Both the position numbers and the translations under genes were made by a program. 64,000 bases of DNA from Syntrophales bacterium (GTDB lineage Bacteria; Desulfobacterota; Syntrophia; Syntrophales; PHBD01), in NCBI GenBank assembly GCA_963668175.1, contig OY764159.1:4128001-4192000 (forward strand), given 5' to 3'. Shown in pieces: positions 28,953-46,134 of this stretch; position 1 is the first letter of the stretch, and the number at the start of each line of letters is the position of its first letter. The notes under the pieces are model-generated. The model was not told the DNA's origin, did no database searches, and worked only from the letters and a program-made list of their open reading frames with translations.

Positions 28953-30020
28953 ATGACGAAACGTGTTAAGAAACAATCCCGCAAGGCGGGACTTCCTCCG
29001 GGAACCTTGATTCACATCGGGGACGTGCTGAGCGATCAGATCAAGATATCCCTGATGAGCTATGACGAAGAGCACGTAGCGGAAAGATCCATCAGCACCC
29101 TTCAGGAATGCCGTCTCCCGGAAGATTTTCCCGGCATCACCTGGATCAATGTCGAAGGCCTCCACGAAACCAAGATCCTGGAGCAATTGGGGGCCAACTT
29201 CGGGATGCATCCGCTTATCCTTGAGGACATCCTGAATACAGCGCAGCGCCCCAAGATTGAGGACTTGGGCAAGTACATCTTCATCGTCCTCAAGATGTTC
29301 AACAATCACGAAGATAAGGCGGAAGAGCTGGAATCGGAGCAGGTCAGCATCATTCTGGGAAGCAATTATGTCGTTTCCTTCTGGGAAAAAGAGGGGAAAA
29401 CGCTCGACCCCATCAGGGAAAGAATCAGAAGCGGCAAGGGCCGTCTCCGGAAAATGGGGCCTGATTATCTGACCTATGCCATCATCGACGCCATCGTGGA
29501 CAGCTATTTCATCGTACTCGAACAGCTCGGCGAGAAGATCGAATTCTACGAAGACACGCTCGTCAGCAAGCCGACGCCTCAGACGCTCCAGGCCATCCAG
29601 CATCTCAAACGGGAGATGATCATCTTGAGAAAGTCGGTCTGGCCTTTGAGAGAAATCGTCGGCTTCCTGGAGAGGACCGAATCGAACCTGCTCGACGATT
29701 CCGTCGGCATCTATTTCAAGGATGTTTACGACCATACGATCCAGCTCATCGATACGATCGAGACCTTCCGGGACACCCTGTCCGCCATGCTCGACATCTA
29801 TCTTTCCAGCATCAGCAATAAAATGAACGAAGTGATGAAGGTGCTGACCGTCATCGCCACCCTATTCATGCCTTTGACGTTCCTCGCCGGTGTTTACGGC
29901 ATGAATTTCACGTTCATGCCGGAACTGAAGTGGGAATACGGTTACCTGATGTTCTGGATCTTGATTGCAATAACGGTGGTTTTAATGTTAATCTACTTTA
30001 GAAAGAAGAAATGGCTGTGA
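28953..30020 (+). CDS. corA: Magnesium/cobalt transporter CorA
   Basis: GLPPGTL, HPLILED, QRPK, NEVMKVLT, YGMNF..MPEL. Confidence 0.95.
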   Translation: MTKRVKKQSRKAGLPPGTLIHIGDVLSDQIKISLMSYDEEHVAERSISTLQECRLPEDFPGITWINVEGLHETKILEQLGANFGMHPLILEDILNTAQRPKIEDLGKYIFIVLKMFNNHEDKAEELESEQVSIILGSNYVVSFWEKEGKTLDPIRERIRSGKGRLRKMGPDYLTYAIIDAIVDSYFIVLEQLGEKIEFYEDTLVSKPTPQTLQAIQHLKREMIILRKSVWPLREIVGFLERTESNLLDDSVGIYFKDVYDHTIQLIDTIETFRDTLSAMLDIYLSSISNKMNEVMKVLTVIATLFMPLTFLAGVYGMNFTFMPELKWEYGYLMFWILIAITVVLMLIYFRKKKWL

Positions 30021-30093: not shown

Positions 30094-30573
30094 ATGAGTG
30101 TTTTTTCAGCCAGTGACATCGTCGAATTTGCCGTCCGCATTGAAGAAAACGGCGCGAACTTTTACAAATACGCCGTCCAGCTTCTCAAAGACGAGGAAGC
30201 CAAGGGCATCTTTTCCCGTCTGGCCGATGAAGAACTGAATCACAAAAGGACTTTTGAAAAAATATTTGCCGTTATCGAAAAAGAGACGCCCCCCGAAAGT
30301 TATACCGGCGAGTATGCCGCTTATCTCCATAACTATGTCGACAACAACATCATTTTCAACAAGGCGAAGATCGACACGGAAGTCGCGGCCGTCAAGGACA
30401 CCATCTCCGCCCTCGATTTCGCTATCCGAAGGGAGCTGGATTCCATCGCCTACTACAACGAGATCAAGGGCATCGTTCCGGCTGCCCATCATGGCCCCGT
30501 CGATCTCATCGTCACCGAAGAGCGGAAACATTTCATGATCCTGACCGGCTTGAAGACAAAATTCAGCAAATAA
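30094..30573 (+). CDS. Ferritin/rubrerythrin-like di-iron protein
   Basis: AVRIEENG..FY, EELNH, AIRRE..SIAYY, EERKH. Confidence 0.85.
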   Translation: MSVFSASDIVEFAVRIEENGANFYKYAVQLLKDEEAKGIFSRLADEELNHKRTFEKIFAVIEKETPPESYTGEYAAYLHNYVDNNIIFNKAKIDTEVAAVKDTISALDFAIRRELDSIAYYNEIKGIVPAAHHGPVDLIVTEERKHFMILTGLKTKFSK

Positions 30574-30585
30574 GGGGCTTGTCCT

Positions 30586-31932
30586 ATGGCAAACCGGGTC
30601 AACGACGACCATGTATTCTACAGGAATCCGACCAAGTACTACCCTCCGGCCGTCAAGGGCGACGGCGTCTATATCTATGACAACGAGGGAAAGACCTATA
30701 TCGACGGTTCCGGCGGGGCCGTCGTTTCCGCCATCGGTCACGGCGTGAATGACATCCGGGAGGCCATGATCCAACAGCTGGGCCAGATCGACTTCACGCA
30801 CGGCACACAGTTCACGTCGAAGGCGGCGGCGGCGCTTGCGGCAAATCTCGTCCGGATCGCCCCGGCTTCCCTGGAACGGGTCTATTTCCTCTCCGGCGGC
30901 TCCGAAGCGGTGGAGACGGCCGTCAAGATGGCCCGCCAATACCAGGTGGACCGTGGCATGCCTTTGAAGTACAAGGTCATCTCGCGGTGGACCAGTTATC
31001 ACGGCAATACACTCGGGGCGTTGGCCCTGGGGGGCCATACCGGCAGGCGGCGTTATTACCAGCCCCTGATCCAGCATACGCCCCACATCGTCCCGGCTTA
31101 TTGCTACCGCTGTCCGTTCGGTCTCGATCCGGAGAAATGCTGCCTCGAATGTGCCGACGACCTGGAAAAAACGATCCTCTACGAAGGCCCCGACTCCGTG
31201 TCGGCTTTCATCCTGGAACCCGTCGTCGGCGCGACGGCGGGGGCGCTCGTGCCCAGGGACGGCTACATGCAAAGAATCCGCGAGATATGCAACCGCTACG
31301 ACGTCCTCCTGATTGCCGACGAGGTCATGACCGGCATCGGCAGGACTGGCAAAAATTTTGCCGTCGACCACTGGAACACCGTTCCCGATATGATCGCCTG
31401 CGCCAAGGGTCTGGGTGCGGGATACTATCCGGTATTCTGCGTCATCACGACGGAGGTTGTACACAAGGCCATCCGGGAGGGAAACGGCCACTTCGTTCAC
31501 GGCCACACTTACAGCCAGAATCCTCTGGCCTGCGCCACAGGGGACGCTGTTCTCGCCTACGTGGAGAAGCACGACCTGGTGAACCGCAGTGCGGCCATGG
31601 GGAAGTACCTGCTTGATAAACTCCGTGTTCTCGAAAGACACGCAATCGTCGGAGATGTCCGCGGCCTGGGTCTCTTCGCCGGTGTGGAGTTCGTCAAGGA
31701 TCGGGCCACCAAGGAACCGTTCGATCCCAAGATGAAGATGAACGCCCTGATCGGCAACCGGGCCTTCGCCAAGGGACTCATTTCATATCCCGGCGGCGGC
31801 GGCGCCGACGGCATCCGGGGCGACCATATCCTCCTTGCCCCTCCCTTCATCATCACCGAGGAGCAGATCGATGCCCTCGTCGGTATCCTCGACGAATCCA
31901 TCGGCGAGATTACAAAGGAGCAGGGGCTGTAA
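30586..31932 (+). CDS. Class III PLP aminotransferase
   Basis: SGGSEAVETA, SYHGNT, LEPVVG, ADEVMTGIGRTG, AKG (PLP Lys), HGHTY. Confidence 0.92.
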   Translation: MANRVNDDHVFYRNPTKYYPPAVKGDGVYIYDNEGKTYIDGSGGAVVSAIGHGVNDIREAMIQQLGQIDFTHGTQFTSKAAAALAANLVRIAPASLERVYFLSGGSEAVETAVKMARQYQVDRGMPLKYKVISRWTSYHGNTLGALALGGHTGRRRYYQPLIQHTPHIVPAYCYRCPFGLDPEKCCLECADDLEKTILYEGPDSVSAFILEPVVGATAGALVPRDGYMQRIREICNRYDVLLIADEVMTGIGRTGKNFAVDHWNTVPDMIACAKGLGAGYYPVFCVITTEVVHKAIREGNGHFVHGHTYSQNPLACATGDAVLAYVEKHDLVNRSAAMGKYLLDKLRVLERHAIVGDVRGLGLFAGVEFVKDRATKEPFDPKMKMNALIGNRAFAKGLISYPGGGGADGIRGDHILLAPPFIITEEQIDALVGILDESIGEITKEQGL

Positions 31933-31934
31933 AC

Positions 31935-32777
31935 ATGGACAAGGTGATCATTACGGCGGCAATCACCGGCAGCCGCATGACGCGGGATATCGCCCCCCAT
32001 ATCCCCATTACCCCGGAAGAGATCGCTCAATCGGCCGTTGAAGCCTGGCGGGCAGGGGCCTCCATCGTCCACATCCACGTCCGGGACCCGGAAACGGGCC
32101 TCGGGACGCAGGACCTCAACCGATTCAGACAGGTCGTGGATATCCTGCGCAAAAAGACCGACCTCATCCTGAGCCTGACGACCAGCGGCATTCCGGGCCG
32201 CAATCTGCCGGTCGCCGAACGTCTGGCACCGCTCAAACTGAAGCCGGAATTGGCATCCTTCGACGCCGGATCAATCAACCTGGGCGGCGGGGTCTTCGTC
32301 AACGACCCGGCCTTTCTCGACGAGGCCGCCCGGATGATGAAAGAGGCCGGCGTCAAACCCGAGATCGAAATCTTCGACCTGGGGATGGTCGTCACAACCC
32401 TCAGGATGCGGGACGAGGGAAAGCTGTCCGATCCGCTCCATTTTCAGTTTGTCCTGGGTACCCCCTGGGGGGCTCCGGCCACGCCCAAAGCGTTTCTCCA
32501 CCTTCTGGAACATATTCCCGACGACGCCACGTGGTCGAATATCGGAATCGGGCGGGGGTATCTGCCGATGGCCATGATGGCCCTTATCATGGGGGGACAT
32601 ATCCGCGTCGGCATGGAGGACAACATCTACCTCGACAAGGGCGTCCTGGCCAAAAGCAACGCCGAACTGGTGGAACGCGTCATACGGATCGTCCGCGCCT
32701 ACGGACGCGACGTCGCCTCTCCCGAAGAAGCCCGGCTTATTCTCGGCATTCGCACGAAAACAAAGGAAAACGTATGA
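31935..32777 (+). CDS. Beta-keto acid cleavage enzyme (BKACE / Kce family, DUF849)
   Basis: IITAAITG, HIPITPEEIA, HIHVRD, KPEIEIFD, HIRVGMEDN. Confidence 0.92.
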   Translation: MDKVIITAAITGSRMTRDIAPHIPITPEEIAQSAVEAWRAGASIVHIHVRDPETGLGTQDLNRFRQVVDILRKKTDLILSLTTSGIPGRNLPVAERLAPLKLKPELASFDAGSINLGGGVFVNDPAFLDEAARMMKEAGVKPEIEIFDLGMVVTTLRMRDEGKLSDPLHFQFVLGTPWGAPATPKAFLHLLEHIPDDATWSNIGIGRGYLPMAMMALIMGGHIRVGMEDNIYLDKGVLAKSNAELVERVIRIVRAYGRDVASPEEARLILGIRTKTKENV

Positions 32778-33847
32778 ATATGAAACCGAAGTTCCTGGCC
32801 ACGGGAGTCGGCAGCATGCCTTTTGACGATCCCGGCCATGGAATCGACCTGTTAATGGAGGCGCTGCCCGACGCCCCCTTCTGGCCTCAACTGCCGAAAA
32901 AGGGGCTTCACGAGCAGATGGAAATCCAGTTCTGCGAGGGGATGCCCAGGGCAGTCATTGACGAGGGGAAGAACCGGCTTTATTTCGATACGTCGGGAGA
33001 CTATTCGGAGGAACTTGCCGATTTCTACGGGACCTACATGGCGGCGATGGACCCCGACGAAGGCAACGGCGACTGTTCAGCCCTGGCCATCGGCCCGTCC
33101 TTTTCCTCGGGTATTTATGCACTGGATGAGCGCCTCCGGCAGATGAACAGGAAACTGCCGTTTCTCAAGGTCCAGGTCACGGGACCTTGCACATTCTCTC
33201 TGACCGTCAACGACGAGAATAGGCGAGCCGTCTATTACAACGATGCATTCCGGGATGTGGTCCTCAAGGCCCTGGCCATGAAATGCCGGTGGCAAATCCA
33301 GAAATTCAAGCCTTACGCGGATCATGTCATTTGCTTCATCGACGAGCCGATTCTTTCCGCCTTCGGAAGTTCCACCTATGTTTCCGTCAAGAGGGAAGAC
33401 GTCGTCGCCCTTCTCGCCGAAATGATCGGCGCCGTCCACGCCGACGGCGGTATCGCCGGCATCCACTGCTGCGGCAACACGGAGTGGAGCATTCTCATCG
33501 ATGCCGGCGTCGACATCGTGAATTTCGATGCCTTCCAGTATGGCGAAACCGTCGCCATGTACCCGGCCCACATCAAGAATCATCTTGAACGCGGGGGCAT
33601 GCTGGCCTGGGGTGTTGTGCCGACCTCCGCAGCGATCGGCGAGCAGACGTTAGAAGGGCTTGCGGAACGTCTCGAAGGCGTGATGGCGCACCTCGCGACC
33701 AAGGGAACCGAAAAGAGATTGATCGCCGAACAGGCCTTGATTACGCCTTCTTGCGGGACGGGTTCCATGTCGCCGGCAGACGCGGAACGGGTCTTCCGCC
33801 TGACGGGGGAACTCTCCCGGGAAATGAAACGCCGGTACGGATTCTGA
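32774..33847 (+). CDS. Core (single-domain) cobalamin-independent methionine synthase, MesB-like
   Basis: ATG 32774 overlaps the BKACE stop. TGVGSMP, WPQLP, KVQVTGP, FIDEP, Zn ligands GIHCCG and ITPSCG. 357 aa, with no N-terminal folate-binding half of MetE. Confidence 0.78.
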   Translation: MNMKPKFLATGVGSMPFDDPGHGIDLLMEALPDAPFWPQLPKKGLHEQMEIQFCEGMPRAVIDEGKNRLYFDTSGDYSEELADFYGTYMAAMDPDEGNGDCSALAIGPSFSSGIYALDERLRQMNRKLPFLKVQVTGPCTFSLTVNDENRRAVYYNDAFRDVVLKALAMKCRWQIQKFKPYADHVICFIDEPILSAFGSSTYVSVKREDVVALLAEMIGAVHADGGIAGIHCCGNTEWSILIDAGVDIVNFDAFQYGETVAMYPAHIKNHLERGGMLAWGVVPTSAAIGEQTLEGLAERLEGVMAHLATKGTEKRLIAEQALITPSCGTGSMSPADAERVFRLTGELSREMKRRYGF

Positions 33848-34020
33848 TCACCGGCCATACCCCCGACCTGTGACGATTCAAAGGCGGGACAGAGGCAAGA
33901 TATCCCGGCTTCCGGCAGATTATTTCTCCCGGAATGGATGAAGACCGGAAAAGGCCGCCGACCGCAAAAACGGAAGGCTTGATGAAGGAACCGAACTAAA
34001 ACAGGAAAAGACTTTTCACC

Positions 34021-34788
34021 ATGAGTTACATCATCGCCATAACGGGCAAAGGAGGCGTCGGGAAAACGACGGTTTCCGCCGTTATGATCTCCCGCATGAT
34101 CGCCCGCGGCTGCCGCCCCATCCTGGCCATCGATGCCGATCCCAATACCAATCTCGACGCCGCCCTCGGCATAGAGATAGCAAAAACCATCGGCGGAATT
34201 CGCGAGGAAGCCAAGCATTACGCCAACATGGGAATGGCGTCGGGTATCGACAAGAAGAGACTCCTGGACATGAAGATCGCCGAAAGTCTCGTCGAAAGCC
34301 GCGATTTCGATATGCTGGCCATGGGCCGGTCCGAAGGGGCGGGGTGTTACTGTTATGCCAACAACATCCTCAAAGACGCCATCCAGCAGCTGGCAGCCCA
34401 GTATCCCTACGTCATCCTCGATAATGAGGCCGGGCTCGAGAATCTTTCGCGCCGCATAATCCAGTCTGTCGATCTCATGATGATGGTCACGGACCCTTCG
34501 GTCAGGGGTATGGATACGGTCAGGCGTCTTCACGGCCTGACGGCAGAGATGGGAATCGTTTATAAGAATCTGGCCGTGGTTATCAACCGATTAAGACGGG
34601 ATGAGCTTCCGGGTCACGCCGATGCCCTGATCCGCGACATTAACGCCGGATTTGTCCTTGCTCTGCCGGACGACGACGATATCGGCCGTCGCTCCGAGGA
34701 AGGGATCAGTCTTGCCGATTTGGCGGCTGACAATCCCATCGTATCGAGAATCGACCACCTCCTCGACCGCTTAAGTCTGTCCGGTTAG
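34021..34788 (+). CDS. cooC: CO dehydrogenase/ACS nickel-insertion ATPase
   Basis: GKGGVGKT, DADPN, GCYC, DNEAGLENLSR. Confidence 0.9.
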   Translation: MSYIIAITGKGGVGKTTVSAVMISRMIARGCRPILAIDADPNTNLDAALGIEIAKTIGGIREEAKHYANMGMASGIDKKRLLDMKIAESLVESRDFDMLAMGRSEGAGCYCYANNILKDAIQQLAAQYPYVILDNEAGLENLSRRIIQSVDLMMMVTDPSVRGMDTVRRLHGLTAEMGIVYKNLAVVINRLRRDELPGHADALIRDINAGFVLALPDDDDIGRRSEEGISLADLAADNPIVSRIDHLLDRLSLSG

Positions 34789-34800
34789 AAAACAGCAGAA

Positions 34801-35457
34801 CTACTGCCGGGGATATCCGATCGTCTGGGCAAGGATGATCCGCTGGTCGTCCCTTAACATCATGGCTTTTCCCAAGACCACCCTGTCGATATTGCCCCTC
34901 ACGACCGTCGCCAATCCTTCGGAAGCACAGTAGAGATAGACGTTCTGGCTGACAAAACCCGTATCCGTGGCGGAGTAGAAATCCTTTTCCTCGGGAGTCG
35001 CTTTTCCCATTCTGGCCAGATCGGCCACATAAATCAGATTGACGGGGGCTTCCTTGACGTAAGGCTGGCTTCCGGTAACACCCCTGATATCCTGTTTGAG
35101 CAACATCTTCAGGCTATGGGTGGCGGCATCGTAAAGGTAAAGGCCGTCTGCGGTTGCGACATAGATATCGATCTCCTGCCAGTTGTTCGCCGAAGGTGCC
35201 GTTCTCCCGTTCGTCTGCGGACGGTTCACGCCGCAAGCAGCCCAAAGGATATTCGACAAAACGCGGATGGGCAGCTTTTTAGGGCTGAAATTCCGAGACG
35301 TTTTCCTGTCTTTCAACACCTGCATCAACATGCGGCTGCTGTCCATCTGGGGCTTGAGGAGTTTAATCGTCTTCAAATCCTGGGCTAAAGCAACTGCAGG
35401 GAAGAGCAGGAGAATAACCGCGACAAATTTTGCCGTTAGGCAACATCTGATAAACAT
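34801..35457 (-). CDS. SagB-type nitroreductase family protein with predicted signal peptide
   Basis: RKTSRNFS, LWAACG, RTAPSA, DTGFVSQNVYL, IGYP; GGAGG RBS before ATG 35457. Confidence 0.85.
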   Translation of the reverse strand: MFIRCCLTAKFVAVILLLFPAVALAQDLKTIKLLKPQMDSSRMLMQVLKDRKTSRNFSPKKLPIRVLSNILWAACGVNRPQTNGRTAPSANNWQEIDIYVATADGLYLYDAATHSLKMLLKQDIRGVTGSQPYVKEAPVNLIYVADLARMGKATPEEKDFYSATDTGFVSQNVYLYCASEGLATVVRGNIDRVVLGKAMMLRDDQRIILAQTIGYPRQ

Positions 35458-36005
35458 TTTGCGTCCCCCTCCTGTTTCATCAAAATTCATACGGACACGC
35501 ATCTGACCGATACACTTTAACAGTTTAAAAATCAAGCATATTTCAGTACCGCCAACGACCCCGGCGGCCGCATCGCTCTGTAACCGTACGCCGCGCGACA
35601 CCGAAAACTTGGCCATGGTAAGATTAAACCGCCGCCGGACCCAAGCAAGCCGGGTGCCTTTCGGGTATGAACCGGGCACACACAAGGACTCGCCGCGAAC
35701 GGCTGTTTAAATATCTTGACGGCATGACCGGTATCATATATCAGAACACCTAATCGTTTGTAACCGCTGCCTTAAAGGTTCTCTGAGATGGGAACTCCCG
35801 GGCGGCGGGCGGCGGCGACGCCTGATCGTGCGCCCGCCGGTATTTTCCATTTTTATTCAGAGATTGTATAATTTCATGATGGCATCCCTCGTTTTCGGCC
35901 TGAAGCCCCACGGCCGTCCGGCCTTCCCGGGGATTAACATAGAGATCGGTCCCGTGTGCAGACCGTTGCGTCGCAGGAAGAGAGCGGACCGATGAACATT
36001 TTCCG

Positions 36006-37964
36006 ATGAAAGACATGAACCCAAGAAAAATGGACCCTAAAGAACGGCTCTGGGACCCGGCATCCATAGAAACCCTGGTCAAAGCCGAACGGGAAGGCCT
36101 GGAAACCTGTTTTTCCCGGATGGATAATCAGGGGAGCACCTGCACATTTGGAAAGAACGGCCTCTGTTGCCGCATCTGCTACATGGGGCCGTGCCGGATT
36201 ACGAAAAAGGCCCCCCGCGGCGTTTGCGGGGCCGATGCCGATACGATTGTCGCCAGGAACCTCCTGCGGGAAGTGGCCGGAGGTACAGCCGCCCATTCCG
36301 ATCACGGCCGCCATCTGGTATTGCTTCTGAAGAAGACCGCCGAAGGAAGGTCCGGGGATTACACGATAAAAGACGAAAAGGCTCTCCGTCAGGCGGCAAG
36401 ATGGTACGGAATTGCCGAAGAAGGCCGCAGTAAAGAGACCGTCGCCCTGGAACTGGCGAGTATCTTTCTTCAGGAATTCATGAAGCAGGAAGAATCGCCC
36501 GCGACCGTGAGCCTTGCTCCGGCAAAACAGCAGACGATCTGGCAGAACCACGGCCTTACACCCGCCGGTCTCGATCGGACCGTCGTGGAATCGATCCACC
36601 GTACCCACATGGGCGTCGACCATGAATACCGTAATCTGCTCCTCCAGGCATTCCGTACGGCCCTGGCCGACGGGTGGGGAGGCTCCCGGATAGCGACCAT
36701 CTGCTCCGACATTCTGTTCGGTACACCCTCTCCTGTCCGCAGCGACGCCAACCTGGGGGTCCTCAACACAGAAACCGTCAATATCGTCGTCCACGGGCAT
36801 GAACCGGAGCTGTCGGAATTGCTGGCCATCGCATCCAGGGACCCCGAAATGACCGCCTATGCCCGCATTGCAGGTGCCGAAGGCATCACCCTCGCTGGAA
36901 TCTGCTGCACGGCCAATGAAATCCTCATGAGGCACGGCATTCCCGTGGCGGGAAGTTTTCTCCAGCAGGAATTGGCCATCGTCACCGGCGCGGTGGAAAT
37001 GATGCTCATCGACGTCCAGTGCTGTATGCCCAGCTTGCCCGAGATCGCAGCGGCCTACCATACGGAGATCGTCTCCACGACGGAAATGGCCAAGACGGCA
37101 GGAGCCTCCTTCATTACGCTCGACGAACACGAACCATTGAAATCCGCGAAGATGCTCATCAAGAGGGCCATCGACCGCTATAAGCTCCGCGACCCGAACA
37201 AGGTCGCCATTCCGGCGGTTAAAAAGCCCCTGGTAGCCGGATTCAGCGTCGATGCCATCAAATACATGCTGGGAGGCAGCTTCCGGGCATCCTTCCGTCC
37301 CCTGAACGACGCCGTCATCCAGGGACGCATAAGAGGTATCGCCGCAATCGTCGGCTGCAACAACCCCCGGTCGAGGGTGGATGAGTACATCAATATCCTC
37401 ACCCGTCAACTGATCGGCCGGGACATCCTCGTCCTCAAGACCGGCTGCGCGGCCATCGCTTCCGCCAAGGAAGGGATGCTCACTCCGGAAGCGGCGCTGG
37501 AGGCGGCGGGAAGCGGGCTGAAAGAGGTCTGCGAGGCGGTGGGCATGCCCCCCGTCCTGCACATGGGAAGCTGCGTCGACAACTCCCGGATTCTGGAAGC
37601 CGCAACGGAGATCGTCCGCGAAGGCGGGCTGGGAGACGATTTGTCCCAGATACCCGCCGTCGGCATCGCCCCCGAATGGATGAGCGAAAAGGCCGTGGCC
37701 ATAGGCTGTTACTTCGTCGCATCGGGGATCGACGTCATCCTGGGACATCCGTTCCATATAGGCGGTTCCGAAAAGGTCACCCGCTTCCTGAACAAGGAGG
37801 CCAGGACCCTGTTCGGGGCCTCCTTCCACGTCTGCGAAGAACCGGAAAAAGCAGCAGATGCGGTCGTCAAGATCATCGATAATGCAAGGGAACGTTTGGG
37901 CATTCATCGACAGGCCTCCCGGAAGCTCTTCGACATGGAAGACCGGAGGATGCTCGATGTCTAA
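36006..37964 (+). CDS. cooS: Anaerobic Ni-Fe carbon monoxide dehydrogenase catalytic subunit
   Basis: CTFGKNGLCCRICYMGPC, HSDH, HGHEP, GICCT, DVQC, GCNN, GSCVDN, SEKA. Start may be 36015 or 36030. Confidence 0.95.
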   Translation: MKDMNPRKMDPKERLWDPASIETLVKAEREGLETCFSRMDNQGSTCTFGKNGLCCRICYMGPCRITKKAPRGVCGADADTIVARNLLREVAGGTAAHSDHGRHLVLLLKKTAEGRSGDYTIKDEKALRQAARWYGIAEEGRSKETVALELASIFLQEFMKQEESPATVSLAPAKQQTIWQNHGLTPAGLDRTVVESIHRTHMGVDHEYRNLLLQAFRTALADGWGGSRIATICSDILFGTPSPVRSDANLGVLNTETVNIVVHGHEPELSELLAIASRDPEMTAYARIAGAEGITLAGICCTANEILMRHGIPVAGSFLQQELAIVTGAVEMMLIDVQCCMPSLPEIAAAYHTEIVSTTEMAKTAGASFITLDEHEPLKSAKMLIKRAIDRYKLRDPNKVAIPAVKKPLVAGFSVDAIKYMLGGSFRASFRPLNDAVIQGRIRGIAAIVGCNNPRSRVDEYINILTRQLIGRDILVLKTGCAAIASAKEGMLTPEAALEAAGSGLKEVCEAVGMPPVLHMGSCVDNSRILEAATEIVREGGLGDDLSQIPAVGIAPEWMSEKAVAIGCYFVASGIDVILGHPFHIGGSEKVTRFLNKEARTLFGASFHVCEEPEKAADAVVKIIDNARERLGIHRQASRKLFDMEDRRMLDV

Positions 37965-40900
37965 GATCATCTGTTCAAGCGCCATCGACGGCGGCATCGC
38001 CTGGATCGCCCGCGCGGAAGAATTCCTGGATCGGGCCGTCCGGCAAAAAGGAGAAGGGGCCGTCGTCGCCTTTCCGGACAGCGCCTACTTCCTTCCCGTC
38101 ATTTATTCCTTCACCGGCGAAAAGGTACGTACCTTAAGCGATCTGCGCAGGCTCCTGCGCTATGCAAAGACCCTGCTTCCTCCCCGGCCCACGGATCGCG
38201 TCTGGCTGCCGTACCTGGGAAACGCCCTCGATGCGGGCGTCGCCTCCCTCTTTGCCTGCGAAATCATCGAGGCCTGCAAGTACCTCATCGGCCCCAACCC
38301 GATAGACGGCATATGGCTGGGTGCGGCGAGCGATGTCATTATGCGCGAACGGGGCATTGAATTCGTCGACGGTACGGCACCCGGCTTTGCCGCCATTACC
38401 GGCGCCGCCCCCACGAACGAAATCGCCGTTTCGATAGCCCGTGCGCTCCAGGAGAAGAACCTTTATGTGTTCATGGCGGGCCCGTCGGGGGGGCGCCAGT
38501 TCGCCGAACAACTCGCGGAGGAAGGCGTTCAACTCGGCTGGGAAACGCGCCTTGTGCCTTTCGGCCGCGACGTCTCCGCCCTGATCTACGCCCTCGGCTT
38601 CGCGAACCGGGTGGCCCTTTCCTTCGGAGGAGTGCAGGCAGGAGATTTCGAACGCAATTTGAAGTACAACAAAAACCGCATATTCGCTTTTGTTCTGGCC
38701 TTCGGTGAAGTAACGCCGGACAAATACGCCCTGGCCGCCGGCGCCATCAACTACGGATTCCCGGTCATCGCCGATACGGACATCCCCCAAATCCTCCCCA
38801 CGGGCGTCTGCACATACGAGCACGTGGTTTCAAACGTCCCCTACGAAAGCATGGTGGAGAAGGCCCTTGAAGTCCGGGGATGTAAGATCAAGATCACCAA
38901 GGTGCCTATCCCTGTTCCCTACGGCTCCGCCTTCGAGGGCGAACGCATCCGCAAGAGCGACGTCCACGCCGAATTCGGCGGCGGCATGACGACGGCCTTC
39001 GAATTCGTCACCATGGCGGACATGGACGAGATTGCAGACAACACCATCGACATCATCGGTCCCGACATCGACGCCGTCGAGCCGGGAACCGTGCTGCCCC
39101 TCTGCATCTGGGTGGAAGTGGCCGGACGCAAAATGCAGTCCGATTTCGAACCGATCCTGGAGCGCCAGATCCACCACCTCGTCAACGGTGCAGAAGGGAT
39201 ATGGCATATGGGGCAGCGGGACATCGTCTGGACGCGTATCTCCAGGAGCGGATACGCCAAGGGCCTGCGCCTGAGACATTACGGAAACATCATTTACGCG
39301 AAATTCGTCTCGGATTATCCGGCCATCGTCGACAAGGTGAAGATCACCCTGATCACCGACGCAGCAGAGGTCGAAAGAAGAGTGACCCACGCCCGCAGGG
39401 TTTACGACGAACGCAACCGCCGCCTGGAATCGATGACGGACGAATCGGTGGACACTTTTTACTCGTGTCTGCTCTGCCAGTCCTTCGCCCCCAACCACGT
39501 CTGCATGATCACCCCGGAGCGCCTGGGGCTTTGCGGAGCCTACAACTGGCTCGACGGAAAGGCCGCCTACGAGATCAACGAAACGGGCGCCAATCAACCG
39601 GTCGCCAAAGGGACCTGCATCGATCCCGTCAAGGGCATCTGGGAAGGGGTCAACGATTATGTGCGTATGGCCAGCCACAAGGCGATCTCTTGCTATTCGG
39701 CCTATTCGATCATGGACAGGCCGATGACGAGCTGCGGCTGCTTCGAGGCCATCTGCGCCTACCTCCCCGAATGCAACGGCGTCATGGTCGTGAGCCGGGA
39801 ATTCAGCGGCGACACCCCGATCGGCATGACCTTCTCCACGCTGGCGGGCAGCGTCGGCGGGGGCCATCAGACGCCCGGATTCATCGGCGTCGGCAAGGTG
39901 TTTCTCACGTCGAGAAAATTCCTCTACGCCGAAGGCGGACACCGGCGGCTCGTCTGGATGCCGAAGGCCCTCAAGGAAGCCCTGGCCTACGATCTCAAAA
40001 AACGGTTTGAAGAACAGGGATGTCCCGATCTCTGGGACAAGATCGCCGATGAAACAGTGGCCATCGACGCCCATCAGGTAAGGGCGTTCATGGACCGGGT
40101 CCAACATCCTGCCCTGGCCATGGCCGATATGCAGTCTCTTGCGGAAGAATCTCCCCGTGCTGCAACGGCGGCGCCGACGATCGCCGACACCGTCCCGGCA
40201 CCCGACAAGAAGGCGGGAGAAGTCGGCGCCGGCTCTGTGAAGCCTGACGACATCGTCCGGATGAAAGAAGAAATAACTGCCGACATCCTGAGCAAGCTGA
40301 AGTCCTCCCTCGCGGGCGAGATCATGGCGGGCGTAATGGCGGCGCTGGGTTCGAAGCCCCGGGATGAAAGCGAGAAAATAGCCCCAGCCGCTCCTGCATC
40401 GGATGTACCTTCACGGGAACATTTTTATGTATCGGCGGTGAATCGTATCGACGCCGTGACGGCATTTCCGGTACGCCGCGAGACATACGGAACGGCGATT
40501 CAGGAGGTCACGCTCGGTGCCGCTCCGGAATCCGGCGGTACCAGGGCAAAGACGGTCACGGTGGGAGGCTCGACATGCATGCCCTTCCACTTCTGGGAAG
40601 GCCGAATGCCGCATCGCCCGGTCATCGCGATGGAGGTCTTCGACAGGATCAGCGAAAAATACCCTCCTGTTCTCAGGGAATGTTACGGCGGTCTCCTCAA
40701 CGATCCTCCGGCCATGGCGCGGGCCTGCGTGGAGAAATACGGTGCCGATCTCATCAGCGTCCGCCTCGACGGCACACACCCCGACCGCGGCAATTATTCA
40801 CCCGAAAAGGCCGTGGAACTGGTGAAAGCGGTTCTCGGCGCCGTGGATGTGCCGCTCATCGTCACCGGACACAGCCACTACGACCGCAACAACGAAGTCA

Positions 40901-41433
40901 TGAAGGCCGTCGCCCAGACCTGTGCCGGAGAGGGTCTTCTCCTCAACTGGCTGGAGCAGGACAACTACCGGACCATAGCGGGGGCGGCTATCGCCTACGG
41001 ACATGCCGTCGTCGCCCAGAGCCCCATCGACGTGAATATCGGCAAGCAGTTGAACATCCTCCTCACGGGCATGGATATGCAGCCCGGCCGGATCGTCATG
41101 GACCCGATGACCGGCGCCGTCGGATACGGCATCGAATACACGTATTCCGTCATGGAAAGGATCAGGCTCACGGCTCTCGGCGGCGACCCGATGCTCGCCT
41201 GCCCGCTGATCGTCTCTCCCGGGCAGGAATGTGCCAAGATCAAGGAATCGAGGGCGTCGGAAGCCGATTTCCCGGCCTGGGGGAATCTGGCCAAACGCGC
41301 GGCGGTTTGGGAATTGGCGACGGCGCTGGGCCTTCTCTACGCAGGTGCCGATATCCTGATCATGTATAACCCTGAAGCGGCCGGAGCTCTGAAGCGGACG
41401 ATCATGCGGTTGATGGAAGGCGGCGGCCAATAA
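37957..41433 (+). CDS. acsB: Acetyl-CoA synthase (AcsB) fused to the corrinoid Fe-S protein small subunit (AcsD), 1158 aa
   Basis: GGAGG RBS and ATG 37957. AcsB motifs CLLCQSFAPNHVC, GLCGA, TSCGCFE end at HPAL (~40115). After a linker come AcsD motifs IQEVTLG..GGTR..VTVGG, IAMEVFD, SPIDVNIGKQLN, MDPMTG..GYGIEYTYSVMERIR. No internal stop. Confidence 0.9.
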   Translation: MSKIICSSAIDGGIAWIARAEEFLDRAVRQKGEGAVVAFPDSAYFLPVIYSFTGEKVRTLSDLRRLLRYAKTLLPPRPTDRVWLPYLGNALDAGVASLFACEIIEACKYLIGPNPIDGIWLGAASDVIMRERGIEFVDGTAPGFAAITGAAPTNEIAVSIARALQEKNLYVFMAGPSGGRQFAEQLAEEGVQLGWETRLVPFGRDVSALIYALGFANRVALSFGGVQAGDFERNLKYNKNRIFAFVLAFGEVTPDKYALAAGAINYGFPVIADTDIPQILPTGVCTYEHVVSNVPYESMVEKALEVRGCKIKITKVPIPVPYGSAFEGERIRKSDVHAEFGGGMTTAFEFVTMADMDEIADNTIDIIGPDIDAVEPGTVLPLCIWVEVAGRKMQSDFEPILERQIHHLVNGAEGIWHMGQRDIVWTRISRSGYAKGLRLRHYGNIIYAKFVSDYPAIVDKVKITLITDAAEVERRVTHARRVYDERNRRLESMTDESVDTFYSCLLCQSFAPNHVCMITPERLGLCGAYNWLDGKAAYEINETGANQPVAKGTCIDPVKGIWEGVNDYVRMASHKAISCYSAYSIMDRPMTSCGCFEAICAYLPECNGVMVVSREFSGDTPIGMTFSTLAGSVGGGHQTPGFIGVGKVFLTSRKFLYAEGGHRRLVWMPKALKEALAYDLKKRFEEQGCPDLWDKIADETVAIDAHQVRAFMDRVQHPALAMADMQSLAEESPRAATAAPTIADTVPAPDKKAGEVGAGSVKPDDIVRMKEEITADILSKLKSSLAGEIMAGVMAALGSKPRDESEKIAPAAPASDVPSREHFYVSAVNRIDAVTAFPVRRETYGTAIQEVTLGAAPESGGTRAKTVTVGGSTCMPFHFWEGRMPHRPVIAMEVFDRISEKYPPVLRECYGGLLNDPPAMARACVEKYGADLISVRLDGTHPDRGNYSPEKAVELVKAVLGAVDVPLIVTGHSHYDRNNEVMKAVAQTCAGEGLLLNWLEQDNYRTIAGAAIAYGHAVVAQSPIDVNIGKQLNILLTGMDMQPGRIVMDPMTGAVGYGIEYTYSVMERIRLTALGGDPMLACPLIVSPGQECAKIKESRASEADFPAWGNLAKRAAVWELATALGLLYAGADILIMYNPEAAGALKRTIMRLMEGGGQ

Positions 41434-41506
41434 CGGATCAGATCTATATTCCGGGACCTTGCTTTAGCAGAAAGGTACTGTATACGATGACAGCAGGACG
41501 TTTTTA

Positions 41507-42853
41507 ATGGCATTGACAGGACTTCAGATACAGAAACTTCTTCCCAAGACCAACTGCCGGGAGTGCGGCTCCAATACGTGCATGGCGTTCGCCATGAGGC
41601 TTGCCGCCAGGAAGGCCGACCTCTCCCTCTGTCCGTATGCATCCGACGAGGCGAAGGCCATTCTGGGCGCCGCGGCCGAGCCGCCGGTGCGGGAGATCGG
41701 CTTGGGCGTCGACGGCGCCCTGCGGACAGGCGGCGAAACGGTCCTGTACCGGCATGAAAAAACCTTCGTCCACCGGACCATCTTCGCCGTCAATATCGAC
41801 GACACGACAAACGATGAACAGATTGACGCCACGCTGAAAGCCTTGAAGGGATACGCCCTCGATAGAGTGGGCGAAACCTTCAAGCTTGATATGATTTCCC
41901 TGACCCAAGCAGCGAAGGATGCCCCGGCCTTCATCGAACTCGCCCGCCGCGCCGCCGCCGTGACGGAACTGCCGCTCGTGATCCGCAGCAAGGACCCGCA
42001 TCTCCTTGCCGAAGTCTCGGCGGCGTTAAAGGGAACTACCTGCGTCCTCTCCGCTGCAACGCCTGACACCGCCGCCATACTCGGGACGTCGGCCAAGGAA
42101 AACGGCCATGTCCTTGCCGTCACGGCTTCCGATATCAATGCGATGACGGCCTGTGTAAAGAACCTCAGGGATACGGGCCATACCGATCTGCTTCTCCAGT
42201 TTCAATCCTCCAACGTGGCCGAACAGTTCCAGACCAACACGGTCGTGCGAAGGGCAGCCCTCATGGACGGTGTCAAACCGATGGGCTATCCCTTCCTTCG
42301 CTTCATCGACCCTGCCGGAGATACCCTCGATATCGCCGCCGAAACGGCAACGGAAATCCTGAAATACGGAGGCATTTGCGTTCTGCCATCCTTCGATCCG
42401 GCCATAATCGCCGCCTTCATGACATTGAGGCTCAATATCTTCACCGATCCTCAGAAACCGATCCAGGTGGAGCCCAAGATATACGCCATCGGCGAGCCGG
42501 ATACCGAATCGCCCGTCTTCGTAACGACCAACTTCGCCCTCACCTATTTCATCGTCTCCGGCGAACTTGAGAACTGCGGCATCGGAAGCTGGCTTGCCGT
42601 CCCGGACTGCGACGGCATGAGCGTTCTTACGGCCTGGGCGGCAGGAAAATTTTCCGGCGCAACCGTGGCCAAGTTCATCAAGGAATCGGGACTGGAAGAC
42701 AGCGTTAAAACCAGGACCGTCACCATACCGGGCTATGTGTCGGTCATCAGCGGAGAGATCGAAGAAAACCTCCCGGGCTGGAAGGTCCTCATCGGCCCGC
42801 CGGATGCATCCGACCTGGACGGCTATGTCAAAGTGATGCTCGGTAAACCCTAA
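41507..42853 (+). CDS. acsC: Corrinoid iron-sulfur protein large subunit
   Basis: LPKTNCRECGSNTCMAFA...CP, GGETVLYRHEK, TDPQKP, TTNFALTY, SVLTAWAAGKF. Confidence 0.94.
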   Translation: MALTGLQIQKLLPKTNCRECGSNTCMAFAMRLAARKADLSLCPYASDEAKAILGAAAEPPVREIGLGVDGALRTGGETVLYRHEKTFVHRTIFAVNIDDTTNDEQIDATLKALKGYALDRVGETFKLDMISLTQAAKDAPAFIELARRAAAVTELPLVIRSKDPHLLAEVSAALKGTTCVLSAATPDTAAILGTSAKENGHVLAVTASDINAMTACVKNLRDTGHTDLLLQFQSSNVAEQFQTNTVVRRAALMDGVKPMGYPFLRFIDPAGDTLDIAAETATEILKYGGICVLPSFDPAIIAAFMTLRLNIFTDPQKPIQVEPKIYAIGEPDTESPVFVTTNFALTYFIVSGELENCGIGSWLAVPDCDGMSVLTAWAAGKFSGATVAKFIKESGLEDSVKTRTVTIPGYVSVISGEIEENLPGWKVLIGPPDASDLDGYVKVMLGKP

Positions 42854-42868
42854 CCCGGACTTTACAGC

Positions 42869-44764
42869 ATGCCGCGGATAACCTTTCATCCTCTTGGAGC
42901 GACCGTCGAGGCGCCATCCGGCCTGGAATTGCGCGATGCCGCAAAACGGGCGGGCATCGAGTTGGACTTTCCCTGCGGCGGCCAGGGGACATGCGGCCGG
43001 TGCGCTGCGCGCGTCCTATCCGGCCGTCTAGACGTCATAGAGACAGCCATCTCGGCCGACACCGTTCCTGATGAAGGATCTATCCTCGCCTGCCGGGCAA
43101 AGATCGGCGATGAAGACGCCGTTGTCGAAGTACGCGAGCAGCCGGATTTGTCAGCCGGTCAGTTCATCGACGAAGAGGAAGAAGCCTCGTTCATACCGCC
43201 TGGATGGCAGGAGCAACCCACCGACCAGGGAGCCCTCGTCTCGACTTATCTCATTGATGTGCCTCCACCGCAGGAGGGAGAAGGCGCCTCGGACTTGGAG
43301 CGTTTGTATACGTCTCTGCGGCGAAATCCGGAGGAGCCTGCCTTCGATTACAGCCTGCATGCGCTGCGCGAGCTGGCGGGCGCCCTTCGCTGCCGAAACG
43401 GGAAGGCGATGGCTGCGGCCGGGCGCTTCGGTGAGCGCCGGCGCCTCGTCCATCTGGAAGCGGGCGGCGACCTCCGTTCTCTTTACGGCATCGCCGTGGA
43501 CCTTGGCACGACCACGGTGGCCGTCAACCTGGTTTCTATTCCCGAAAACCGCATCATCGCGTCACGGACGGAATACAACGGCCAGGTCGTCTGCGGCCTC
43601 GACATCATCAGCCGGATCAATTACGCCGGTCGACCGGAAAGACTGGAAGAACTGCGCCTGAGAGCCCTCAAGACGATCAACGGCTTGATCGGGCAACTAG
43701 CCGCTGCCGTCGCACCGGCCCGGAATCGGATATACGGCTGCGCCCTTTCCGGCAACACGACAATGATCCATCTCTTGCTGGGCATGAATCCCGAGTATAT
43801 CCGTCTTGCCCCCTACACGCCGACCGTTCTGGACGTGCCGCCGCTTCGGGCAGGCGATATCGGCCTCGACATCCACCCGGAAGGCCCCGTCTTCATATCC
43901 CCGGCCGTCGGCAGTTACGTCGGCGGCGATATCACCGCCGGTCTTCTCTGCACAGGCTCCGCCTTCACGAGCGACGAGATATGCCTTTTTATGGATATCG
44001 GCACCAACGGCGAAATCGTCTTGGGAAACGGCGATTTCCTCATGGCCTGCGCCTGTTCCGCAGGGCCGGCATTCGAAGGCGGCGGCATCGGAAACGGCAT
44101 GAGGGCCGCCGGCGGGGCCATCGACCGGGTGCAGATCGATCGGGAAACGGGGCAGGCGACTTATCGCACCATCGGTGATTTGCCCCCGCGCGGCATCTGC
44201 GGCTCCGGAATGCTGTCACTCCTGGCCGGCCTTTTCACGGGAGGATGGCTCGATGCGTCCGGTCGTTTCAAACGGCCGAGTTCTTCATCTTTTATCGACT
44301 TCAAAGGCAGACTGGGGATTTATACCGTTGTTCCCTGGGAGAAGAACGCGATCACCGTGACGGAGCGGGACATCGAAAATCTCATCCGCGCCAAGGCGGC
44401 GCTATATGCGGCCTGCGGCCTGCTCACGAAACAGGCGGGGATCGGATTTCAGAACATAGCAAAGGTATTCATCGCCGGCGGATTCGGGAGGTACCTGGAC
44501 ATTGAAGACGCCGTTACGATAGGATTGTTGCCGGATATCCCCCGGGACCGCTTCCATTACCTGGGGAATGCGTCGCTTAAGGGCAGCACGATGATCCTGC
44601 TTTCGGAAGAACACCGGAGGCTGCAACAGGGGTTCGTGAAACGCATGACCTATGTGGAACTCAACACGGACTCCGAATACATGGATCAATACACGGGGGC
44701 TCTTTTTCTGCCCCACACGGACCGCCGCCAGTTCCCTTCGCTGAAAAACCGGCTGGCGGATTGA
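42869..44764 (+). CDS. acsV: ATP-dependent reductive activator of corrinoid proteins (RACo/AcsV; 2Fe-2S + ASKHA)
   Basis: CGGQGTCGRC...LAC, DLGTTT, GNTTM, YVGGD, DIGTNGE, AGPAFEG, GICGSG, AGGFG, GNAS. Confidence 0.9.
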   Translation: MPRITFHPLGATVEAPSGLELRDAAKRAGIELDFPCGGQGTCGRCAARVLSGRLDVIETAISADTVPDEGSILACRAKIGDEDAVVEVREQPDLSAGQFIDEEEEASFIPPGWQEQPTDQGALVSTYLIDVPPPQEGEGASDLERLYTSLRRNPEEPAFDYSLHALRELAGALRCRNGKAMAAAGRFGERRRLVHLEAGGDLRSLYGIAVDLGTTTVAVNLVSIPENRIIASRTEYNGQVVCGLDIISRINYAGRPERLEELRLRALKTINGLIGQLAAAVAPARNRIYGCALSGNTTMIHLLLGMNPEYIRLAPYTPTVLDVPPLRAGDIGLDIHPEGPVFISPAVGSYVGGDITAGLLCTGSAFTSDEICLFMDIGTNGEIVLGNGDFLMACACSAGPAFEGGGIGNGMRAAGGAIDRVQIDRETGQATYRTIGDLPPRGICGSGMLSLLAGLFTGGWLDASGRFKRPSSSSFIDFKGRLGIYTVVPWEKNAITVTERDIENLIRAKAALYAACGLLTKQAGIGFQNIAKVFIAGGFGRYLDIEDAVTIGLLPDIPRDRFHYLGNASLKGSTMILLSEEHRRLQQGFVKRMTYVELNTDSEYMDQYTGALFLPHTDRRQFPSLKNRLAD

Positions 44765-44769
44765 CGGCC

Positions 44770-46134
44770 TCAATGCTTCAGGCCGTATTTCTTCAGCTTG
44801 TAGCGAAGCATCCTTTCGCTGATGCCGAGAAGTTCCGCGGCCTTGGTCTGGTGGTATCCCGTCTTTTCCATGGCCTCGACGATCAGCCGCTTCTCCAGGT
44901 CTTCGATGGACTCCTTGAGCATCCCTTCTTCCTTTCTGCCCGATTCTCCGTGATCGAACGCATCTTCGCCGAAAGGCAGATCCTCGATGGAAATTACCGA
45001 CTCACGGGCAATCACGACGGCCCGTTCGATGATGTTTTCCAATTCGCGGACATTGCCCGGATAATCGTATTTCAACAGGAGATCCTGGGCCTCGCGGCTG
45101 AAACCTGCTATGTCCTTGCCGTTGTCCGCCGCATAGCGTTTGATGAAATGATCGATAAGCACCGGGATGTCCTCTTTCCTCTCCCGCAGCGGCGGCATGG
45201 CCATAACGACCACATTCAGCCGGTAGAAGAGGTCTTCGCGGAAATCGCCGGCCTTGACCCTCGCTTCCAGATCGCGATTGGTGGCGCTGATGATGCGCAC
45301 GTCGGAGCGGATGGTTTGGTTGCCGCCCACCCGCTGAAACTCACGTTCCTGCAAAAAGCGAAGGAGTTTGACCTGGACCGATTGCGATAATTCGCCGATT
45401 TCGTCGAGGAAAAGGGTCCCGCCGTCGGCCTCTTCAAAACGGCCGATGCGCCGTGCCGTGGCCCCGGTAAAGGACCCTTTCTCATGACCGAAGAGTTCGC
45501 TCTCCAGAAGATTTTCATGCAAGGCGCTGCAGTTGACGGAGATGATGGGCCGCTGCGACCGCGGGCTCAAATGATGGATGAGCTTCGCCATCAGTTCCTT
45601 GCCCGTACCGCTTTCCCCCTGGATGAGTATCGTCGCCCGGCTGGCGGCGACACGTCCGGCCATGTTGATCAGGGCGCTCATTTTCGGACTCCGGAAAATG
45701 ATCTGATCGGTCGTCACTCCTTTTTCCCTGAGTTCCTGTCGAAGCAGTTCATTCTCCCTGATCAGGGTGCGCCGCTCAGATACGCGATCCACCAACAATA
45801 GCAGTTCGTCGAATTCGATGGGCTTGGTAATATAGTCTATGGCTCCTGATTTCATGGCTTCGACAGCCGTCTCGATCGTTCCGAAAGCTGTAATGATCAC
45901 GACGTCGATCTCGGCATTGATCCCCTTGACCGCCTTGAGGACATCCATACCGCTCAGGCCCGGCATCTTGTAGTCGAGCAGGATCAAATCGTAATGGCCG
46001 CTCCGGACCAGTTGCACGCCCTTTTCGCCGTTTTCAGCCTCGGAAACCGAGTGGCCCTCCTTGATAAGGAAATCTCTTAACATTTCCCGCTGGGACTGCC
46101 CGTCTTCCACAATCAGGATGTTCAATTTTTTCAT
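44770..46134 (-). CDS. Sigma54-dependent response regulator (NtrC/AtoC/ZraR family)
   Basis: REC domain; GESGTGKE, ESELFGHEKGSFTGA, FLDEIGE, FREDLFYRLNV, PGNVREL; Fis-type HTH. Confidence 0.95.
   Translation of the reverse strand: MKKLNILIVEDGQSQREMLRDFLIKEGHSVSEAENGEKGVQLVRSGHYDLILLDYKMPGLSGMDVLKAVKGINAEIDVVIITAFGTIETAVEAMKSGAIDYITKPIEFDELLLLVDRVSERRTLIRENELLRQELREKGVTTDQIIFRSPKMSALINMAGRVAASRATILIQGESGTGKELMAKLIHHLSPRSQRPIISVNCSALHENLLESELFGHEKGSFTGATARRIGRFEEADGGTLFLDEIGELSQSVQVKLLRFLQEREFQRVGGNQTIRSDVRIISATNRDLEARVKAGDFREDLFYRLNVVVMAMPPLRERKEDIPVLIDHFIKRYAADNGKDIAGFSREAQDLLLKYDYPGNVRELENIIERAVVIARESVISIEDLPFGEDAFDHGESGRKEEGMLKESIEDLEKRLIVEAMEKTGYHQTKAAELLGISERMLRYKLKKYGLKH

Follow-up and report, generated by a model that had tools for sequence, protein, structure and literature searches.

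A MesB-like methyltransferase gene at the head of an AcsE-less CODH/ACS gene module in a Syntrophales bacterium and in many other phyla

In Dehalococcoides, a model for the kind of pathway considered here, the methyl group of methionine derives from C2 of acetate (cited in PMC7857596 and PMC7005905). It has already been proposed that MesB, a core-MetE enzyme, draws this methyl group from the corrinoid iron-sulfur protein (CoFeSP) (Deobald 2020, PMC7005905; Price 2021, PMC7857596). In this work, we analyzed a 64,000-nucleotide stretch of DNA from a Syntrophales bacterium, hereafter called the window, which covers positions 4128001-4192000 of a complete single-contig 4.57-Mb genome (G000:C1), using a listing of open reading frames (ORFs) and Pfam/NCBIfam scans. 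The window contains a gene for a 357-amino-acid (aa) MesB-like protein, to which we give the working name X357 (32774-33847, + strand), at the head of a set of genes for carbon monoxide dehydrogenase/acetyl-CoA synthase (CODH/ACS). The initial annotation of the window had offered the transfer of a methyl group from CoFeSP to MesB as a candidate route; given the two earlier proposals, that idea is not new. What we add is the observation that a relative of MesB is tied to an AcsE-less CODH/ACS gene set in many phyla.

The gene list of the initial annotation, namely core MetE, cooC, a nitroreductase gene, cooS, acsB-D, acsC and acsV, was recovered in full, although with two additions: the nitroreductase gene lies on the minus strand, and the start of X357 is coupled to an upstream BKACE gene. 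Downstream of X357, cooC (34021-34788, +; Pfam CbiA/AAA_31) encodes an ATPase for Ni insertion that belongs to the module's second ("C2") type, and cooS (36006-37964, +) encodes the catalytic subunit of a Ni-CO dehydrogenase (PF03063, 543 bits; TIGR01702, 627.7 bits, cut-off 478). The next gene (37957-41433, +) is an acsB::acsD fusion of 1158 aa, in which CODH_A_N, CdhC, ACS_CODH_B_C and CdhD domains share one frame, and the AcsB part is joined to the small CoFeSP subunit (AcsD) through a linker of roughly 100 residues. It starts with the ATG at 37957, with GGAGG upstream and an 8-nucleotide (nt) overlap with the cooS stop, and scores 1026.9 bits with NF040764 and 373.7 bits with NF003376. The large, corrinoid/[4Fe-4S] subunit of CoFeSP is encoded by acsC (41507-42853, +; PF03599, 269 bits; PF04060 FeS domain; NF003195, 484.7 bits, cut-off 306), and acsV (42869-44764, +) encodes RACo, the reductive activator of corrinoid protein (Fer2, RACo_linker, Raco_middle and RACo_C_ter; NF040756, 571.8 bits, below the cut-off of 800). 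The CODH/ACS gene set (CooS/AcsA, AcsB, AcsC, AcsD, CooC-type maturase and RACo) is complete in the window, with AcsD as a fused domain. As initially annotated, acsE, fhs, folD and metF are all absent from the window, and the ORF listing and Pfam scan reveal no methyl-donor genes beside the module.

The initial annotation had suggested that the co-occurrence of this gene order be checked. We scanned species-representative genomes and used the best 80 of 202 relatives of X357, which are 64-71% identical. Counts for each gene use only loci with enough DNA, gene calling was guided by conservation, and the gene that we call c5 was counted by tblastn. These 80 loci span at least 14 phyla (Bacillota 16, Lentisphaerota 14, Bacteroidota 10, Planctomycetota 6, Acidobacteriota 5, Ignavibacteriota 4, and others), and their conserved order is (c5) - X357 - cooC - (65-aa ORF) - cooC - cooS - acsB::acsD - acsC - acsV. 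The X357 homologue is accompanied by cooC in 76 of the 80 loci, and among evaluable loci it is followed by cooS in 66 of 68 (exceptions L054 and L060), by acsB::acsD in 58 of 60 (exceptions L024 and L054) and by acsC in 48 of 53. No count is given for acsV, because this gene lies just where the 10-kb flank ends. Of 61 ORFs in the fusion cluster, 47 reach at least 1114 aa, and the remainder are cut by contig ends or broken. The linkage of X357 to CODH/ACS is far beyond chance.

The c5 gene encodes a stand-alone protein of about 298 aa with a homocysteine S-methyltransferase domain (PF02574, 237 bits; e.g., L008 9009-9965 and L012 233-1126). It is directly upstream of the X357 homologue and on the same strand in 46 of the 74 loci with room for it, while 28 have no c5. 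The window's cluster has none, and the only PF02574 domain in the host genome is within MetH. The window's cooC is 57-58% identical to the cooS-adjacent cooC of L008 and L012, and 30-33% identical to their first cooC; the first type is absent from the window's cluster, and a 50%-identical copy occurs in a separate monofunctional CODH cluster of the host. The nitroreductase insertion is found in one of the 80 related loci (L006, from a Syntrophaceae metagenome-assembled genome, or MAG); elsewhere the module runs straight from cooC to cooS. Given that the upstream c5 and the first cooC are missing and that a foreign gene lies inside, the window's copy is a reduced, rearranged version of a widespread module, and because the nitroreductase gene between cooC and cooS is on the opposite strand, transcription of this copy has to proceed in two units.

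Some related loci show further genes. The conserved ORF that separates the two cooC genes has about 65 aa, belongs to no family, and is seen in L080 (11863-12060) and in 16 further loci. Genes of the MtaB and/or MtaC type, as in methanol methyltransferases, are directly upstream on the same strand in L059, L063, L077, L078 and L080. In L080 (3783-8804), the MtaB/MtaC-type genes are accompanied by genes for a CobW GTPase and a further RACo, with an AraC/PocR regulator gene facing the group.

The initial description of X357 as a "core MetE (MesB-like)" is supported by its predicted MetE-type fold and its MesB-like ligand pattern, but finds no echo in Pfam, where X357 has no match even at E<10. 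Its sole family match is to the NCBIfam "methionine synthase" model NF002119, at 24.5 bits with a cut-off of 258, and a sequence search of the PDB gave 0 matches at E<=10. The structure predicted by AlphaFold2 from 30 homologues has good confidence (pLDDT 85.2, pTM 0.88). The best Foldseek matches of this model are MetE chains (1xpg, 4l6h, 1u1h and 4ztx), with one barrel aligned and a TM(query) of 0.54-0.60. These are followed by uroporphyrinogen decarboxylases, the Methanosarcina mazei methyltransferase 4ay7/4ay8, which we take to be a corrinoid-dependent thiol methyltransferase of the MtaA type, and the structure of MesD (3rpd). With its 357 aa, X357 would form one catalytic barrel, and it has no N-terminal folate domain.

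Invariant residues among the 30 homologues are G13-S14-x-P16, D190-E191-P192, H231-C232-C233, D252 and C327. Of these, S14 (in G-S-x-P) and D190 (in I-D-E-P) are the counterparts of the homocysteine-binding Ser and Asp of MesB and MetE, which are found at positions 15 and 177 in D. mccartyi MesB (PMC7857596), and H231, C233, D252 and C327 correspond to the zinc ligands. In Dehalococcoides MesB, these ligands are at positions 214, 216, 235 and 311, with Asp replacing the Glu of MetE (PMC7857596). The zinc-site spacing in X357, H-x-C-18-D-74-C, gives offsets of +2, +19 and +75, which agree with the published offsets of MesB (+2, +19 and +76) and are unlike the numbers quoted for MetE and MesA (PMC7857596). 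The model and the residues together support X357 as a MesB-type, MetE-like single-barrel zinc methyltransferase with a His-Cys-Asp-Cys site.

An exhaustive HMMER search with X357 returned 2168 cluster representatives at E<=0.001, of which 454 remain at E<=1e-30. The majority show 34-46% identity and a length of 340-370 aa. One representative, P0203, has 39% identity and 245.5 bits to X357, and its 90% cluster holds proteins of Methanomassiliicoccales, which are described as having MesB only (Price 2021, PMC7857596). Among the cluster members of 10 representatives, we found only Methanomassiliicoccales names and no Dehalococcoides entry. The published definition of the MesB family asks for 130 bits or more (173 in the methods) against DET0516 in phmmer (Price 2021, PMC7857596). 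Indirectly, the fold, the residues and the similarity to P0203 place X357 in the MesB family in a broad sense, as a tight sub-clade. We also considered PF01717-positive core proteins of module genomes (L086 and L087) as a handle on MesB, and rejected them; BLASTP against X357 gave E-values of 0.76-1.5, which are not significant, and their best matches are to other "methionine synthase" models (NF003317).

The initial annotation had proposed a search of the full genome for acsE, metF, metH and full-length metE, and regarded a co-expressed acsE with a methyl branch and metH as evidence against its hypothesis. The methyl branch and metH are indeed present, but acsE was not found. In the complete host genome, Pterin_bind (PF00809) matches only folP and metH, the AcsE model NF040758 detects only the MetH domain (105 bits, cut-off 370), and three stand-alone pterin methyltransferases taken from other genomes, used as tblastn queries, likewise retrieve only MetH. 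As a positive control, a stand-alone AcsE-like gene was detected in all five complete genomes of the window's phylum that have a canonical AcsB, four of which carry it within about 2 kb of acsB. Since these control genes score only 157-183 bits, the strict AcsE cut-off is too high for this phylum. It is also important to consider that archaeal CoFeSP uses methyl-pterin without AcsE, so the absence of AcsE does not prove independence from folate.

The host has one copy each of metF, fhs and folD, dispersed and outside the window, and a MetH of 805 aa (G000:C1:4493061-4495478, minus strand; L002 727-3144) that has homocysteine, pterin and B12 domains but lacks an activation domain. The genome has no PF01717 match anywhere. 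With metH, metF, fhs and folD in the host, the acetyl-CoA route cannot be the sole source of methyl groups for its methionine, and the X357 route would be auxiliary to MetH. Short forms of MetH that lack the reactivation domain are thought to rely on a RamA- or RACo-like activator. AcsV is the only RACo-type protein among those scanned in the host, where no genome-wide RACo search was made.

Matches to the CdhD family in the host are limited to the two in the window and one HgcA, which indicates a single ACS system. This HgcA (NF040863, 450.8 bits, cut-off 275), a protein of mercury methylation and the second corrinoid protein related to CdhD in the genome, is located outside the window at G000:C1 ~2037600-2039640 (L105 3600-5636), and directly before it is an arsenite-methyltransferase-like gene (NF008823, 358.8 bits). 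Another CODH cluster, which is monofunctional, at G000:C1 ~2533900-2538500 (minus strand; L104 3918-8470) comprises cooC, a Pyr_redox_2 oxidoreductase, a CooF-like ferredoxin and cooS (TIGR01702, 697.8 bits), with an aldehyde:ferredoxin oxidoreductase nearby.

We then considered methionine and AcsE genes across 50 module-carrying genomes. These include MAGs of unknown completeness, and the classes of MetH and homocysteine methyltransferase were read from open-frame lengths. The AcsE model's cut-off is reached in none of the 50, and only two (G003 and G023) have a stand-alone frame that resembles AcsE at E<=1e-40. PF02574 frames of MetH size (at least 770 aa) are present in 29 genomes. Another 10 have only forms of 580-650 aa, nine of which are fusions of a homocysteine methyltransferase to MTHFR, while that of G029 has an in-frame pterin-binding stretch. 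Beside such a fusion of about 600 aa, a separate pterin-binding protein was observed in G014, G016, G018, G019 and G039; the combination looks like a split methionine synthase in Bacillota MAGs. PF02574 fragments were seen in G025, and 10 genomes have only frames of c5 size. MTHFR is present in 44 of the 50, and PF01717 proteins in 10, only one of which is a full-length MetE.

Given the 29 genomes with MetH-size frames and the 44 with MTHFR, most hosts do not need the X357 route. Price 2021 takes such cases as a hint of another function (PMC7857596). However, six of the 50 genomes (G005, G010, G011, G026, G035 and G046), all of them among the ten with only c5-size frames, have neither a MetH-size frame nor MTHFR. 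In these Dehalococcoides-like genomes, the module is the obvious source of the methyl group of methionine. The initial proposal of a biosynthetic methyl-supply module is supported in part.

Our preferred interpretation is that CoFeSP and homocysteine exchange a methyl group, and that the methyl of acetyl-CoA ends in methionine; we give this proposal an even chance of being correct. It builds on the observed gene content, catalytic residues and synteny, on a modeled fold, and on searches in which AcsE was not found. Because the gene set has no usual folate methyltransferase, the B12 protein probably trades methyl groups directly with homocysteine or methionine. In the proposed mechanism, ACS would cleave acetyl-CoA and load the methyl group onto the corrinoid of AcsC/AcsD in its Co(I) state. 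As the zinc enzyme, X357 would dock on the methyl-Co(III) domain and methylate homocysteine to methionine, while CooS would oxidize the CO released from acetyl-CoA and AcsV would re-reduce Co(II). We infer from the above that X357, rather than c5, would be the partner of CoFeSP, that homocysteine would be the substrate, and that transfer would run in this direction.

Several observations weigh against this interpretation. A large Ni, Fe-S and corrinoid machine seems costly for a biosynthetic side flux, and this host, like the majority of the 50 (29 with MetH-size frames, 44 with MTHFR), also has the ordinary genes, here metH, metF, fhs and folD. A second homocysteine methyltransferase, c5, adjoins the X357 homologue in 46 of 74 loci, and either enzyme could serve CoFeSP. 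X357 does not match PF01717 (Meth_synt_2), is translationally coupled in the window to the unrelated BKACE gene, and is separated from cooS by the opposite-strand gene. Finally, no S-adenosylmethionine, B12 or T-box element was found in the window or in 19 related loci. At gathering scores, Rfam has no match in the whole 64-kb window, tRNAs included, and only one tRNA in the 19 related loci, so there is no riboswitch clue to regulation.

The same partners might also operate in reverse, or in both directions, and we consider this a tentative alternative with a limited chance of being right. In that case, X357 would pass the methyl group of methionine to Co(I)-CoFeSP, and ACS would make acetyl-CoA with CO derived from CooS. 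Methionine would come from MetH or from c5, using methyl-corrinoid donors, such that the homocysteine/methionine pair would replace the folate shuttle, and MetH with X357 would replace AcsE. Reverse operation would account for the retention of a whole CODH/ACS by hosts that have MetH and MetF, given that most hosts have MetH and MTHFR and that a catabolic or electron-sink role would better repay a complete CODH/ACS; it would also explain the MtaB/MtaC-type genes directly upstream in L059, L063, L077, L078 and L080, with CobW and a second RACo in L080. CooS is moreover constant in the module, whereas Dehalococcoides, to our knowledge, has none. By a rough estimate, methyl transfer from a thioether to Co(I) is uphill by ~25-30 kJ/mol, but acetyl-CoA formation and a high methionine/homocysteine ratio could pull it. 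However, the step is thermodynamically unfavorable, and we know of no MetE-type enzyme that performs it, the only precedent familiar to us being the MtsA type. The six module genomes without MetH-size genes and MTHFR fit the synthase direction instead, and the window has no methyl-donor genes beside its module.

A broader version of this idea, which we regard as doubtful, is that the module would be a folate-free plug-in converter between methyl groups and acetyl-CoA, with the homocysteine/methionine pair as methyl carrier and X357 loading CoFeSP from methionine or unloading it. The methionine pool would be filled by MetH, or by c5 together with systems of the MtaBC or MttB type. If this were true, fermenters in many phyla could run an acetogenesis-like reduction of CO2 or methyl groups without AcsE.

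It is unlikely, in our estimation, that the module is instead a self-sufficient carbonyl branch belonging to the Wood-Ljungdahl pathway, where its unusual CoFeSP would take methyl groups from methyl-tetrahydrofolate unaided, the host's Fhs, FolD and MetF would feed the module, and X357 would be a side branch to methionine. Archaeal CoFeSP does perform methyl-pterin transfer alone (PMC13370988), and the genes fhs, folD and metF are present in the host. In addition, the AcsD domain stays below the cut-offs of both the bacterial AcsD model NF040759 (241 bits versus 430) and the archaeal cdhD model TIGR00381 (227.8 bits versus 252.9), but does fit the separate subfamily model NF003376. On the other hand, the AcsB of the module is of the bacterial type, with an N-terminal CODH-binding domain, Pfam detects no pterin-binding signature in AcsC or AcsD, and the fixed place of X357 in the module would be left unexplained.

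Quite improbable is a different substrate for X357, which would methylate or demethylate another amino-thiol or methyl-thioether, for example in methylated-sulfur metabolism, with CoFeSP as its corrinoid partner. The missing PF01717 match, the fold match to the presumably MtaA-type 4ay7/4ay8 and the bona fide homocysteine methyltransferase that often adjoins the X357 homologue would suit this explanation, but the serine of GS-x-P and the aspartate of I-D-E-P, through which MetE binds the amino-acid portion of homocysteine (roles as given in PMC7857596), are invariant. That X357 belongs to an aminotransferase/BKACE operon and is next to CODH/ACS by chance is hardly credible: there is a 4-nt overlap with BKACE (ATGA, the X357 start codon with the BKACE stop) and a 173-nt gap before cooC, and L006 is arranged likewise, but CorA, rubrerythrin-like, aminotransferase and BKACE genes accompany the X357 homologue in only one of the 80 loci (L006), versus 76 of 80 for cooC and 66 of 68 evaluable loci for cooS.

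The upstream genes concerned are, on the + strand, those for CorA (28953-30020), a rubrerythrin-like protein (30094-30573), a class-III aminotransferase (30586-31932) and the BKACE (Kce-like) enzyme (31935-32777; Kce model 333 bits, below the cut-off of 382). The latter three (30094-32777) are tightly packed and coupled translationally to X357. The inserted nitroreductase/SagB-like gene is located at 34801-35685 on the minus strand (PF00881, 84.5 bits). Upstream of cooS, a sigma-70-like promoter match (35844-35872, +; TTTCCA-17-TATAAT, 10/12) constitutes weak evidence, as promoter and terminator scans of the region gave site counts not above those of shuffled sequence. Downstream of acsV, a sigma-54 response regulator and a histidine kinase are encoded on the minus strand (44770-47924). 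An ORF of 209 aa at 44761-45390 was rejected as a gene; it matches no family, overlaps the opposite-strand sigma-54 regulator and has no relative in the 80 loci.

Regarding the origin of the module, phylum labels need 24 changes on a FastTree tree, against a possible minimum of 13 and a mean of 46.6 after shuffling, which suggests, for the sequences compared, that inheritance is partly vertical and partly not. We regard the module as horizontally exchanged. Among 300 other genomes of the window's phylum, 196 have X357 homologues, with 34-50% identity and none at 60% or above among the 149 matches listed. The same 300 include 210 genomes with AcsB matches; the 149 matches listed are at most 60% identical, cover the AcsB part only, and have frames of 690-870 aa, except for long ones in G069, G229 and G261. 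The module's fusion proteins of other phyla are 62-78% identical to that of the window. Within the window's own order, eight of nine genomes lack an AcsB match and none has an X357 homologue. The simplest reading of these similarities is that the module was acquired by transfer into the window's lineage.

If X357 does couple CoFeSP to homocysteine and methionine, it would be wrong to take the CODH/ACS genes of many phyla that are not acetogenic (Bacteroidota, Lentisphaerota, Planctomycetota, Ignavibacteriota, Acidobacteriota and others) for a Wood-Ljungdahl pathway. The gene set would then be a methionine-linked methyl module, which would affect the carbon flux inferred from metagenomes. The compact set of seven genes suits a reconstitution of Price's prediction that MesB receives its methyl group from CoFeSP. 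The gain from the window alone is modest, in that its copy is reduced and its host has the ordinary route too. A full-text literature search found no account of an AcsB::AcsD-fused, AcsE-less, MesB-led module; the supplements of PMC7857596, which possibly list members of this clade, were outside that search. While the acetate-to-methionine route of Dehalococcoides, the proposal linking CoFeSP to MesB and the mesB-acsCD operons of methanogens are already in print, we did not find the widespread fused module described.

The canonical bacterial acs cluster (Moorella/Carboxydothermus type) consists of CooS/AcsA, AcsB, AcsC, AcsD, CooC/AcsF and RACo, all of which it shares with the module. However, it has a stand-alone AcsE and a separate AcsD, whereas the module has no AcsE, a fused AcsD and a MesB-like lead gene. 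The zinc MT2 methyltransferases MtaA and MtsA of methylotrophic methanogens have a barrel of the uroporphyrinogen decarboxylase/MetE superfamily, a zinc-activated thiol and a corrinoid-protein partner. They share the barrel type with X357, but their acceptor is coenzyme M and their motifs are different, while X357 keeps the MetE-type homocysteine motifs. The archaeal acetyl-CoA decarbonylase/synthase (CdhABCDE) resembles the module in having no separate AcsE; there, CoFeSP itself moves methyl groups to and from pterin, and CdhC lacks the N-terminal domain found in the module's AcsB (PMC13370988). In the mesB-acsC-acsD operons of methanogens, as in the module, a MesB-family gene is grouped with both CoFeSP subunits; these operons are archaeal, without the bacterial-type AcsB::AcsD fusion, and cooC, cooS and RACo are not described with them in the excerpts of Price 2021 (PMC7857596). 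Another close likeness is to the MesB/core-MetE of D. mccartyi (cbdbA481 = DET0516), which is also a single MetE-type barrel (~343-357 aa for the two proteins) with the HCDC zinc-site spacing and the homocysteine Ser and Asp, and for which CoFeSP from an AcsE-less acetyl-CoA synthase has been proposed as the donor, taking the methyl of acetyl-CoA to methionine. Unlike in D. mccartyi, X357 is clustered with CODH/ACS, in one same-strand array in the related loci, it belongs to a clade that is 64-71% identical across phyla and lacks a PF01717 match, and it occurs together with CooS and a fused AcsB/AcsD in a host that also has MetH and MetF.

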